Part shown: in pieces, positions 34,047-38,097 of the stretch | Numbering within the stretch: the first letter of the stretch is position 1 | Layout: each line of letters opens with the position of its first letter | DNA from: Chlamydiia bacterium | Lineage (GTDB): Bacteria > Chlamydiota > Chlamydiia > Chlamydiales > JAAKFQ01 | Length of the DNA stretch: 45,208 nucleotides | Direction: 5' to 3' | Assembly (NCBI GenBank): GCA_041688145.1 | Contig: JBDNIV010000002.1 | Coordinates: 1 to 45,208 of the forward strand | Notes under the pieces: model-generated | The model's input: the letters and a program-made list of their open reading frames with translations, nothing else | Told to the model about the DNA's origin: nothing | The model's database searches: none | Made by a program: the position numbers and the translations under genes

Positions 34047-36180
34047 CGCGAGCAATCCGTTTAGCAAGATTATATCAGGCCTTGGTAGCAAGCGTGTGCT
34101 TGGTCTGATAAATAGTTCAAGCGATCTAGTGCTAGCTTTTTTCATTATCTTGATTATTGCAATGTTGGTTGTGCCGTTCCCGCCACACCTCATTGATATA
34201 CTTATTGGGATTAATCTCTCTTTATCTATTGTGCTTCTTTTTGTTGCGCTCTATATCCCAAGAGCTACAAGCCTCTCTGTTTTCCCCTCTCTTCTTCTTA
34301 TGACAACCATGTACCGTCTAGGGGTAAACATCTCTTCTTCGCGTCAGATTCTTCTGCATGCTTATGCTGGGGATATTATCCAAGCGTTTGGAACGTTTGT
34401 CGTCGGAGGCAACTACGTTGTCGGGGGTATTATCTTCTTAATCATCACAATCGTGCAATTTATCGTGGTGACAAAAGGTGCTGAGCGTGTAGCGGAAGTG
34501 GCGGCTCGTTTTGTCCTTGATGGTATGCCGGGTAAGCAGATGAGTATTGATGCTGATCTTCGTGCGGGCACTATCGATACTAATAAAGCTAAAGAGATGC
34601 GTAGCCAGCTCCAAAAAGAGAGTCAGCTCTATGGAGCTATGGATGGAGCTATGAAGTTCGTAAAAGGGGATGCGATTGCAGGCATGGTTATTGCAGTCAT
34701 CAACATCGTTGGTGGCCTTGTTATTGGTATGTTTATGCACGGCATGTCAGCTGGGCAAGCAGCTCAGATCTATACGATCTTGTCTATTGGTGATGGCTTA
34801 GTCTCGCAGATACCGGCTCTTTTGATCTCGATTACAGCGGGTCTTGTAACAACGCGCGTTTCTTCTAATGATAAAAAAGATACGAACCTCGGTGAAGAGA
34901 TTTCCTCACAGCTACTCAGTCAGCCTAAAGGATTAATCCTTGCTGCGGGCTTCACTTTTGTCGCAGGCCTTGTACCCGGCTTTCCTTTCTGGGTCTTTTT
35001 TATCATCACTCTTATATTGGCGGGTACTGGTGCAAAGCTTTATTTTGCAAAGAACAAGTCCCGTACAACAGATTCTGGGGGAACGATCACAGTCGCCATG
35101 GATAAAGATGGCAAAAATGTTACCTACACAGGGTCGAATGATGATCTTATGCTCACACTTCCTGTTATTATGGAGGCGGGAAGCGCAATTTCTGCGCTGA
35201 TTCGCAAAGATAGAGGGGGTGAGAACTTCATTGAAGAGATGGTGCCTAAAATGCGCCACGCTCTTTATCAAGATTTAGGGGTGCGTTTTCCAGGTGTACA
35301 CGTGCGCACAGATTCACAGGCACTTGGTCCTGATGATTATATGATTCTTCTGAATGAAGTGCCTGTTGTCCGCGGTAAAATTGTGCCAGGAAGCCTTCTT
35401 ACTAACGAAGATGAAATGAGCTTAAAGCGCTTTAACATTCCATTCACTATGCAGAGAAATACGCTCAACCTCCCTACATTATGGGTCGAAGAGCGTTATG
35501 AAAACATCTTGAAAAATGCAGATATCAAATATTGGTCACCTCTAGAGGTTGTTGTCTTGCATTTGACCTTCTTCTTTAAGAAGTATGCATCAGAGTTCAT
35601 TGGGATTCAGGAAGTACGTGGTCTTATCGAATTTTTGGAAAGCTCTTTCCCTGATCTGATTAAGGAAGTGACTCGCTTAGTGCCTTTGCAAAAGCTGACT
35701 GAGATCTTCAGACGCCTTGTGCAAGAAGAAATCTCGATTAAAGATCTAAGAACGATTTTTGAGTCGCTTAGTGAATGGGCGCAGACTGAAAAGGATACCG
35801 TGCTTCTTACGGAGTATGTCCGCTCTTCCCTTAAACGTTATATCAGTTACAAGTACTCTCTTGGGCAATCGATTATTTCGGTCTATGTCCTTGATCCTGC
35901 TATTGAAGACATGGTCCGTGGCGCCATTAAGCAGACTTCAGCAGGCTCTTATCTCGCTTTAGATCCAGACTCCTCTCAGCTCATACTCGGAGCTATGAGA
36001 AATGTCGTTAAGCCGGTAGCTCCTGGAGCCCAGCCTCCTGTTATGCTGACAGCTATTGATGTAAGGCGCTTTGTGCGTAAGTTTATAGAGTCAGAGTTCC
36101 CCGATCTGATCGTGCTCTCATACCAAGAGATTATCCCAGAAATTCGCATCCAGCCTCTTGGGCGCGTGCAACTTTCTTAG
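34036..36180 (+). CDS. sctV: T3SS export gate SctV/CdsV (LcrD/FlhA family)
   Basis: GAERVAEVAARF.LDGMPGKQMSIDAD, GAMDGAMKFVKGD, GDGLVSQIP, LSYQEI. Confidence 0.97.
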   Translation: MKSSASNPFSKIISGLGSKRVLGLINSSSDLVLAFFIILIIAMLVVPFPPHLIDILIGINLSLSIVLLFVALYIPRATSLSVFPSLLLMTTMYRLGVNISSSRQILLHAYAGDIIQAFGTFVVGGNYVVGGIIFLIITIVQFIVVTKGAERVAEVAARFVLDGMPGKQMSIDADLRAGTIDTNKAKEMRSQLQKESQLYGAMDGAMKFVKGDAIAGMVIAVINIVGGLVIGMFMHGMSAGQAAQIYTILSIGDGLVSQIPALLISITAGLVTTRVSSNDKKDTNLGEEISSQLLSQPKGLILAAGFTFVAGLVPGFPFWVFFIITLILAGTGAKLYFAKNKSRTTDSGGTITVAMDKDGKNVTYTGSNDDLMLTLPVIMEAGSAISALIRKDRGGENFIEEMVPKMRHALYQDLGVRFPGVHVRTDSQALGPDDYMILLNEVPVVRGKIVPGSLLTNEDEMSLKRFNIPFTMQRNTLNLPTLWVEERYENILKNADIKYWSPLEVVVLHLTFFFKKYASEFIGIQEVRGLIEFLESSFPDLIKEVTRLVPLQKLTEIFRRLVQEEISIKDLRTIFESLSEWAQTEKDTVLLTEYVRSSLKRYISYKYSLGQSIISVYVLDPAIEDMVRGAIKQTSAGSYLALDPDSSQLILGAMRNVVKPVAPGAQPPVMLTAIDVRRFVRKFIESEFPDLIVLSYQEIIPEIRIQPLGRVQLS
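36106..36180 (+). repeat. Direct repeat copy 1 (last 75 nt of sctV)
   Basis: Matches 38022..38097 with 6 substitutions and 1 indel. Confidence 0.95.
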
Positions 36181-36203
36181 GATATTTTATTAGCTGAAAA
36201 TAG

Positions 36204-37889
36204 CTAAAGTGAGGATCTTTCAGCTGAAAAGGCCGAGCTTACCCACGTTTTAAGCTCTTCTTGATACTCTTCGAGTTTATCTGCAGGTATCGTGTCAAAC
36301 ACCCGAATTTTGATCTCAGAGTCTGGGTTTAAGACACCCTTTTCATTTATGATAAGGCGCGCTTGTATTGAATCGAGGGCAGGCAGCTTTCTAGGATCTG
36401 CTTGCGCAGTTTTGAGCGCTTCAAACATTGAAATGCCTATGAAGCAAGTTTTTGTCATACCCAAGCTGCCACAAAGGTAGGCAAAGCTATTTATCAGGGA
36501 CTCATCTTTGGGAAGCATAATTGCTAAAATGGCACTGTCGTCCTCAGCAATTTTTTTTGCAAGAGCCTCAAGCGCGGGAAGTTTCTCCTGAGGAATGCCA
36601 TAGTGATTTAAAACAGGGGCAAGTAGTTCTTTTGTGGAAAATGTGGTGACGTTACGTCGAAATTTCCAATAAGCAAGGGTGCAGTGGGGTGCATAATTGA
36701 AATTTCCTTGTAAAAAGATGTTAGTGGCTAAAAGGTGTGCAGAGACTTCAGAAGAGATATCGTTATAGGTTAAGTATTTCAAGTTGTGTCTATTGAATAA
36801 TTCTATCTTAGCTGCATGCAATCGATCTTCTATCAGATCCCTTACTGCATTTTCCATATGGCCTGTTGTGATAGACCTATGCAAACAATCCCCCTTAGAA
36901 AGAGGCCCTTTAGGCTCAGGGAATTTTGGCTCCGTAGGCACCATTTTCCCAGAGGGGGAAGTGCGCGCGCTTTGAATTTTACTAAATGCTTCTTTTACGA
37001 GGGCTTGATCAGCAGCATCTTTAGCATTTAAAGAGATTTTTTGCCCGTCTGGTAAATAAGCGGCAACTTCTAGAGCATTAAATAGCTGGATAAAACCCTG
37101 GATAAACCTAGTTTTTTCTTCTGGATTTTTTTTTGTATACTCTTCGATCAAAGCAGCTATAGGCCTTGCGTCTTCAGTATCCAGATCAAGCTGGCAGCTG
37201 AGACCAAATTGCTGAAGCAAGCTGCTTAGCTTGCGCTTTTCTAGAATAGCTAGGTATTCATCTGTTTTTTTGCTAATGGCTACGTATTTGTCTGCCCAAT
37301 GCTCGAGAAGTAGATCAGCTTGGTCATCTTCAGCGGGCTCTTCTGACGATTCACTGTAAAACCCGATTCCAATAAGGACAAACTTTAAAAACGCCTTGTC
37401 TTCTTCATTTGAAGGATCAAGGGGAGTAACATCCAATCCGTTCATTTTTAGCTCATCTATTAGGCTAATAAAACCTTTGGTAAATTCAGCCCTGACAGCT
37501 TCTGTATCTGCTAGGTGGTATGTCTGAGTTAAGGAAGAGGCTGTGTGGTTGTAGCTTGCTTTAGGAAAGCGCACAAAGGTGAAATCTTCAGGAAAAGTTT
37601 TTCCTGTGCGTTTTTCTTCCAAAAGTCTAATCAGATCTCTGTAGACGCGAAAGCCTGTTTGAGCATGGTAAAAAGCAAAATGTGTTTTAGCTAGACTTGT
37701 TTCATATTTGAGAATTTCAGAAAGAGGATGTTGCTCAAAAAAAGCCCTCACTACACTATCGTCCTCATCGGGAGATCTTTCAGTGTCTGCCCAATCTGTT
37801 TTGAAGTATTGAGGATCAATTTGAACTACAGCTTCTGCGAATAAAGTACTTTGTCCAACAAGCAGAGGGGCAACAGGTGGCAAATGCAT
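36204..37889 (-). CDS. Orphan 561-aa protein inside the repeat-flanked cassette
   Basis: Long ORF with AAGGAG RBS; motif order FYHAQ..LLATN..IMLP..QARL. Confidence 0.85.
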   Translation of the reverse strand: MHLPPVAPLLVGQSTLFAEAVVQIDPQYFKTDWADTERSPDEDDSVVRAFFEQHPLSEILKYETSLAKTHFAFYHAQTGFRVYRDLIRLLEEKRTGKTFPEDFTFVRFPKASYNHTASSLTQTYHLADTEAVRAEFTKGFISLIDELKMNGLDVTPLDPSNEEDKAFLKFVLIGIGFYSESSEEPAEDDQADLLLEHWADKYVAISKKTDEYLAILEKRKLSSLLQQFGLSCQLDLDTEDARPIAALIEEYTKKNPEEKTRFIQGFIQLFNALEVAAYLPDGQKISLNAKDAADQALVKEAFSKIQSARTSPSGKMVPTEPKFPEPKGPLSKGDCLHRSITTGHMENAVRDLIEDRLHAAKIELFNRHNLKYLTYNDISSEVSAHLLATNIFLQGNFNYAPHCTLAYWKFRRNVTTFSTKELLAPVLNHYGIPQEKLPALEALAKKIAEDDSAILAIMLPKDESLINSFAYLCGSLGMTKTCFIGISMFEALKTAQADPRKLPALDSIQARLIINEKGVLNPDSEIKIRVFDTIPADKLEEYQEELKTWVSSAFSAERSSL

Positions 37890-38021
37890 TAAGTTCTCCT
37901 TTTATAACGATAGCGAAAGTATTATTTGAAATTTTATTATCTAATAATTGATTTCTGCAAAGAAATTTTATCATGGATGAAGTAGTTAGTCAACTAGATG
38001 CCTCGAATTGCAGATATCAAG

Positions 38022-38097
38022 CTGATTGTGCTCTCATATCAAGAGATTATCCCAGAAATTCGTATCCAGCCTCTTCGGGCGCGTGGAACTTTTTTAA
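38022..38097 (+). repeat. Direct repeat copy 2: degenerate sctV 3'-end remnant
   Basis: Encodes LIVLSYQEIIPEIRIQPL, identical to the SctV C-terminus, followed by a 1-nt insertion. Confidence 0.95.

Follow-up and report, generated by a model that had tools for sequence, protein, structure and literature searches.

In a 45,208-nt stretch of DNA from a Chlamydiia bacterium (contig JBDNIV010000002.1, positions 1 to 45,208; hereafter the window), the 3' end of sctV, the gene for the export gate of the type III secretion system (T3SS), is present twice, on either side of a single gene on the opposite strand. We suggest that this structure is probably a scar left when one insertion with long target duplication was made by host recombination; its one-step nature and the recombination route are what we infer from the anatomy of the locus and from similar scars elsewhere. 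The sctV case is a real example of an already described kind of integrase-free insertion scar, which also marks housekeeping genes in chlamydiae, and sctV is one target among many. It reveals neither a new mobile element nor a T3SS-specific capture system.

The sctV gene (cdsV; 34036..36180, plus strand, TIGR01399 over the cut-off) is intact. Its last 25 codons including the stop (36106..36180, 75 nt) recur in the same orientation at 38022..38097 (76 nt), with a start-to-start spacing of 1916 nt and 1841 nt in between. As the initial annotation had reported, the two copies differ by six substitutions and one extra C in the downstream copy, and realignment reproduced the division of the substitutions into four silent (ATC>ATT, TAC>TAT, CGC>CGT, stop TAG>TAA) and two missense (CAA>GAA, TCT>TTT). 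The copies are ~92% alike, with a longest perfect shared stretch of 23 nt. The match is not due to chance: its local alignment score is 118, compared with a maximum of 31 in 300 shuffles. Self-BLAST of the 1.275-Mb genome gave E 7.7e-22 for the pair and listed no third copy. Because the live gene agrees with its relatives at both missense sites (Gln in 26/26 other tails read), the downstream copy is the dead, decaying one; the live ending, GRVQLS, also fits the relatives' consensus. The final Phe of the dead copy was considered as the ancestral residue and rejected, as 0/26 other sctV tails end in Phe.

The inserted segment (36181..38021) consists of one convergent gene with its upstream region. 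This cargo gene (36204..37889, minus strand, 561 aa) is the single open reading frame (ORF) of at least 80 aa with its own start between the two sctV tails, and its stop lies 23 nt from that of sctV. The insert, at 1841 nt well below 20 kb, has no Pfam or NCBIfam match and no recombinase or other mobility gene, and no integrase, resolvase or phage gene was found in the insert or in the window, which bears out the earlier description of an insertion at a protein-coding 3' end without an integrase in the cassette. The same description had exactly one orphan gene between the repeats; there is indeed one gene only, but it is no orphan, having 177 homologous clusters and relatives in 80/400 genomes. 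A sigma-70-like promoter match (TTGACT-17-TAAAAT, 10/12, extended TG; 37965..37993, minus strand) lies within the insert and faces the cargo; it is a consensus match only, four such sites being found where 4.7 are expected by chance.

The same anatomy is seen at other genes. When the 1116 ORFs of this genome were scanned for intergenic copies of gene tails or heads, three tails (sctV, lpxB and holB) and no heads were recovered. At lpxB (L109:3207-4273, G000:C12), the duplicated 42-bp tail (90% identity) brackets a convergent 283-aa F-box gene, the F-box being a eukaryote-like domain; the search for further 3'-end duplications that the initial annotation had proposed thus yielded a second locus of the same architecture in the same genome. 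The third locus, holB (L110:1771-5129, G000:C32), is a plain tandem duplication of the tail together with a hydrophobic accessory gene, in which both paralogues (52% identical over 96 aa) are kept and the tail copy measures 80 bp at 80%. Among 40 loci of the cargo family, one shows the scar: in G114, a 141-bp copy (94%) of the valS tail flanks a convergent member of the same family. A cargo-blind scan of 100 stretches from nine genomes (1,871,822 bases, 1718 ORFs) returned eight rows, namely three clean cases, two tandem duplications and three dispersed repeats. G001 contributes two of the clean cases, rpsJ (98 bp) and dps (53 bp), and G020 the third, a class II phosphodiesterase gene (57 bp). 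Not counted as cases were holB, L117 and L184, where tandem paralogues are kept, and three L119/L124 rows, which are dispersed palindromic repeats.

Six unrelated genes (sctV, lpxB, valS, rpsJ, dps and the phosphodiesterase gene) therefore carry the same anatomy, with copies of 42-141 bp at 89-94% identity. Five of these are clear cases from ~3.1 Mb scanned regardless of cargo, and one comes from the cargo-family loci. All six lie at 3' and none at 5' ends, and five of the six inserted genes are convergent and one co-directional with the target, numbers too small for a test of bias. For valS and the phosphodiesterase gene, congeners have the gene order without the cargo. By eye, the six inserts share no consistent terminal inverted repeat or junction motif.

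The two lpxB ends show which copy is the older. The sister species' protein ends in LQVDL and that of a third relative in LQVDARD, while the displaced copy reads LQVDL-stop and the live gene LQVE-stop, the latter ending on incoming DNA. Because the displaced copy ends like the sister and the live gene does not, the downstream copy is the original end of lpxB, whose last two codons the insert did not restore; by analogy with lpxB, the downstream copy at sctV may likewise be the original end. As a separate observation, lpxB (L109:2124-3251) has an in-frame stop in this assembly, either a strain variant or a consensus error, and the full 375-aa protein is present in other assemblies of the same species cluster (P0165, P0288).

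Silent changes as a share of all differences number 0/4 in lpxB, 1/3 in valS, 0/2 in rpsJ, 4/6 in sctV, 5/5 in dps and 4/4 in the phosphodiesterase gene, with one missense change each in valS and rpsJ sitting at the ragged edge of the repeat. The pooled 14/24 is above the expectation if the copy alone decays (P 0.004) and not above it if the live gene also drifts at silent sites (P 0.16); for sctV by itself the excess is not significant under either model (P 0.075 and 0.29, respectively). The picture is mixed: judging from these differences, some cases resemble a pair of alleles that were both functional, others a single allele that was duplicated, and sctV appears to fit neither decisively. 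The proposal that incoming DNA restores the 3' end of its target is contradicted at lpxB, where the ancestral end was not restored; dps and the phosphodiesterase gene, which differ only silently, could have received a donor-supplied tail.

The locus has also been rearranged, in our reading before the insertion. The host is a chlamydial metagenome-assembled genome (MAG) alone in its genus, and its nearest GTDB relative has 70% SctV identity. In G001, G008, G020, G022 and G027 the gene order is sctU-sctV-copN-scc1-malQ-TPR gene, and copN lies within 1.5 kb behind sctV on the same strand in 25/29 other sctV loci; of the remaining four, one is cut off by a contig edge, and the other three have copN or scc1 on the same strand but farther away. 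Here sctU (cdsU, the export switch; 32991..34046, plus strand, Pfam Bac_export_2) holds its ancestral position by synteny with G001, and copN-scc1-malQ, which in relatives follows directly behind sctV on the same strand, has been flipped in place relative to sctU-sctV. The inverted block (38601..41825, minus strand) comprises malQ (38601-40196), scc1 (40177-40632) and copN/sctW (40632-41825). At its right breakpoint (41826..41894), which is common to the sister species, the copN start and the TPR/transglutaminase-like gene, which in relatives comes after malQ, lie back to back, and the left breakpoint is filled by the repeat, the cargo and an 89-aa ORF. We conclude that an inversion has split the sctU-sctV-copN-scc1-malQ operon, whose genes share one direction in all relatives examined, and has left sctV as the last gene of its operon and transcription unit, with a gap behind it.

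Run X7 contains a sister species ~8-9% different in core genes. One X7 contig aligns unbroken over 38612-44119, spanning the right breakpoint; the inversion is therefore older than the split from the sister species. Two X7 contigs leave 2150 letters past position 36165 and 2893 ahead of 38612 unaligned at 82%, and nothing in that run aligned on the cargo or on the second sctV tail at 82% or better. The sister's SctV, SctU, CopN, Scc1 and MalQ are present in the protein collection that we searched, in which no 50-90% homologue of the cargo was found. The DNA behind sctV therefore varies between the two species, the cargo being most likely a lineage-specific gene. The comparison of relatives downstream of sctV thus found the variable cargo that the initial annotation had anticipated; the same duplicate was absent from the other loci checked. 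A metagenome scan with SctV gave three loci, none of which covered this junction in a close relative.

An inversion was also considered as the source of the repeat and rejected. By gene-order reasoning, neither a single inversion nor one with staggered breaks can yield a direct repeat at this position, and self-BLAST and local alignment found no inverted sctV-tail copy near the copN start.

Several other sctV loci are unusual in ways of their own. In G008 (L033:6012-10300), sctV and copN are separated by five ORFs of the same strand, which include three tandem paralogues of ~310 aa, with no sctV-tail copy. G012 (L115:9142-14661) has two sctV copies, ~70% identical, with copN between them. In G001, a 170-bp palindromic dispersed repeat lies right after the sctV stop (L031:12096-12320) and elsewhere in the genome (also L119, L124), and G010 (L005) has other palindromic repeats between sctV and copN.

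The history that we favor has three steps. The first, shown by synteny, is the inversion of copN-scc1-malQ before the split from the sister species, which left sctV at the operon end. In the second, 1.84 kb of DNA, probably from another chlamydia and carrying a single gene along with a promoter match, would have been inserted at the sctV stop codon by the recombination or repair machinery of the host, without an integrase. This could have happened by a single crossover with a small circle carrying a relative's sctV tail (Campbell or homology-facilitated), or by a replication template switch that copied the last 75 bases twice. In the third step, visible in the two tails themselves, the upstream copy stays under selection as the end of sctV and the downstream copy decays. 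The predominance of 3' ends, we infer, may arise because a duplication of 40-140 bp at a 3' end leaves the gene whole, and one at the 5' end would separate the gene from its promoter. RecA and ComEC are both present in the genome.

Some observations weigh against a one-step insertion by host recombination. No match to DprA was found in the genome (92% complete), nor was a true empty site at sctV seen: between sctV and malQ the sister species has other, longer DNA. The cargo's GC content at third codon positions (0.354, compared with a genome average of 0.353) gives no compositional sign of foreign origin. Tandem duplications that include the upstream gene's tail also occur here (holB; L117 in G001), and duplication followed by loss can look similar. 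Formation of the sctV structure in that way, by tandem duplication of the sctV tail with a neighbor gene and later deletion or replacement of one neighbor copy, would dispense with a one-step insertion altogether and strikes us as rather unlikely. Its intermediate does exist at the two loci just named, genes of the cargo family are often tandem, and sctV is doubled in G012. Yet the sequences after, or before, the two sctV tails are dissimilar (scores 15-21, chance level), the genome has no cargo paralogue, and copies still 92% alike are too recent for a paralogue to have been lost by point mutation. Tandem duplication would, moreover, need a second event that ended at the stop codon.

A bolder version of the history is improbable, in our estimation. 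It holds that in this genus the sctV 3' end became, through the inversion, a point at which DNA can be exchanged repeatedly, and that small circles of a sctV tail plus one secreted-enzyme gene pass between lineages and integrate by RecA with the tail as a portable anchor. The cargo would then be an enzyme directed at the host, and its highly divergent, undescribed ADP-ribosyltransferase-like family would move in this way, with the same scar at valS in another family.

We give still less credence to a remnant of an integrase-encoding island or of a prophage for which the sctV 3' end served as attB, and which supplied a replacement end and later lost its integrase, on the model of e14, which carries its own integrase. 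The sctV anatomy does match that of icd-e14-icdC as excerpted (PMC13626634), and the silent differences at sctV (4/6), dps (5/5) and the phosphodiesterase gene (4/4) are as expected for an incoming, diverged functional allele. However, the six targets have no shared junction motif by eye, the 23 nt between the sctV and cargo stops contain no remnant, and the ancestral last two codons of lpxB were not restored. The missing integrase is not compensated elsewhere: two PF00589 tyrosine recombinase matches lie on other contigs, with XerD and XerC as best models, and neither PF00239 nor another resolvase-family match was found in the genome (92% complete). Integration in the manner of a phage attachment site, as the initial annotation had pictured it, consequently loses its footing, the six targets sharing no site and the genome offering no integrase or resolvase beyond these XerC/D-like proteins.

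It is very improbable that the sctV 3' end is an active site for capture and release of T3SS effector cassettes. The different DNA behind sctV in the sister species, the five extra ORFs in G008 and the F-box cargo at lpxB all speak for it. On the other hand, no sctV-tail copy lies behind sctV in any of 29 other loci (1.5-kb flanks) or in seven stretches of greater length from other genomes. When 400 genomes were queried with a 45-aa tail, this genome's copy was recovered and ~70 genomes gave two matches, mostly in families in which the second would be flhA; 10 of these were checked, and in none was the second match less than 10 kb away from sctV. With tail copies also at lpxB, valS, rpsJ, dps and the phosphodiesterase gene and none recurring at sctV in the other genomes checked, the idea of a T3SS-specific site is not supported. 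The sister species, too, had no tail copy aligned, and the cargo, which is encoded on the other strand and has a promoter match of its own, belongs to a family of which 74/115 members have a signal-peptide-like N-terminus. Release fares no better. No joint from 36106 to 38022 was found in four runs, searched as contigs of low depth, in which rare variants are dropped. A crossover before the extra base would swap the last six conserved SctV residues for 51 others (ORF 37998-38231), and a pop-out would now either frameshift or alter SctV; excision between the repeats, once suggested for this locus, is thus not borne out. Because recombination between the copies would damage the SctV tail, the insert appears to be locked in and effectively fixed.

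An assembly artefact can practically be discounted: the window comes from a MAG contig, the runs reach a depth of only 2-5 and none of their contigs covers both sctV tails, but the copies differ at seven places and each is reproduced unchanged, with at least 29 flanking letters per side, in contigs from two studies, one of which may be the window's source sample (X2 over 35558-36209; X1 over 36381-37959 and 37956-38747; 0 other letters compared with the window).

The cargo belongs to an unnamed protein family. A phmmer search with it returned 177 clusters at E <= 0.001, of which the best apart from the cargo itself reach 37-38% identity. A profile of 115 members has a patchy distribution, matching 80/400 Chlamydiales genomes, and the members often stand in tandem pairs. 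Of the 29 other family loci whose neighbors were examined, none adjoins sctV, and the host genome has no paralogue. Residues ~50-120 and 370-555 are conserved, with a private helical insert of ~250 aa between them. The family has no Pfam, NCBIfam or PDB sequence match, a word-index search among 8000 candidates of 308-982 aa found only the cargo itself, and the ESM Atlas gave no usable match for the cargo or for a compact member of the family (P0025). AlphaFold modeled the two at pLDDT 71.8 and 93.5, respectively, and Foldseek returned no match at E <= 0.001. Matches to folds of the ADP-ribosyltransferase/RES superfamily (Z 3.5-4.2, root-mean-square deviation 4-6) are level with unrelated helical rows. 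Most beta-containing matches with ~95 or more aligned residues nevertheless belong to the ADP-ribosyltransferase superfamily (diphtheria toxin catalytic domain, exotoxin A, RES, ParT and TreX, with DarT in Foldseek). We treat the ADP-ribosyltransferase-like fold that these models weakly suggest as a lead. Residues conserved across the family are Y74-H75, N390 and Q509-x-R511, in which we recognised no H-Y-E or R-S-E triad, which we take to be the canonical ADP-ribosyltransferase motifs. The hydrophobic, signal-peptide-like N-terminus of the 74 members is not found in the cargo and says nothing direct on type III secretion. No known effector domain, eukaryote-like domain or restriction-modification family match was found in the cargo, and none of the analyses linked it to type III secretion; ankyrin repeats occur in 4/115 members. 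In G026 (L070:4926-7872), a cargo-family gene and a phosphatase/NUDIX-like gene stand, by eye, between degenerate tRNA-like repeats.

The hydrophobic 89-aa ORF beyond the displaced sctV tail (38111..38380, minus strand) is probably a second accessory gene at the junction; it had no homologue among four candidates and was not seen in the sister species. Together with 30803-32752, 27881-28390 and 43544-44098, it is one of the genes around the T3SS cluster that have no Pfam match. The 649-aa gene at 30803-32752 diverges faster from the sister species than its neighbors do (~14%, compared with 8% in sctU-sctV). Elsewhere in the genome, at L225 (G000:C26:28001-31200), a 494-aa gene with a toxin-like C-terminus is followed by a short immunity-like gene and then by a diverged second copy of both; by eye, the arrangement is like that of a polymorphic toxin that has an additional, orphan module. 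The hit on C26 in the scan for tail copies is a toxin-immunity-like tandem.

Insertion with long target duplication, to which we assign the sctV scar, was reportedly described by Nobusato et al. in 2000. Our cases extend this described but mechanistically unexplained route of gene gain to Chlamydiales, whether or not chlamydial cases have been published before. The scars recur, with five cases in ~3.1 Mb and one more at a cargo-family locus, and can therefore be used to date and locate recently gained genes in chlamydial symbionts. The window also records a chlamydial lineage in which an otherwise conserved T3SS operon is split by inversion, and flags a widespread protein family with a confident model and an unplaced fold.

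The closest parallel is the set of insertions with long target duplication in Furuta, Abe and Kobayashi 2010 (PMC2853133), which, in the excerpted text, were chosen for restriction-modification cargo. As there, the direct repeat at sctV exceeds 30 bp and is unique in the genome, the insert is smaller than 20 kb and has no mobile-element gene, and repeat length varies between cases; their 46-bp H. influenzae repeats likewise overlap gene 3' ends. Save for restriction-modification cargo and an empty site, all the sequence features by which that text defines its cases are found at sctV, which differs in its uncharacterised cargo gene, its obligate intracellular host lineage and in that an empty site at sctV was not seen, where theirs had an empty-site genome. 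In the excerpted account of e14 (PMC13626634), icd and icdC show the same live gene end upstream, displaced C-terminal pseudogene downstream and silent differences; unlike the sctV insert, e14 is a 15-kb prophage that excises. Homology-facilitated illegitimate recombination has been invoked for T6SS (type VI secretion system) effector-immunity arrays of V. cholerae (PMC5361080) and for small variable segments (PMC2884548), and by analogy is a candidate route for the sctV insert. In the excerpted parts of both reports, as at sctV, foreign genes are added beside a conserved anchor gene by host recombination and the old ends are shifted downstream; in the V. cholerae arrays, however, it is the variable effector end that is displaced, and arrays build up, whereas here the tail of the conserved anchor has been duplicated once.

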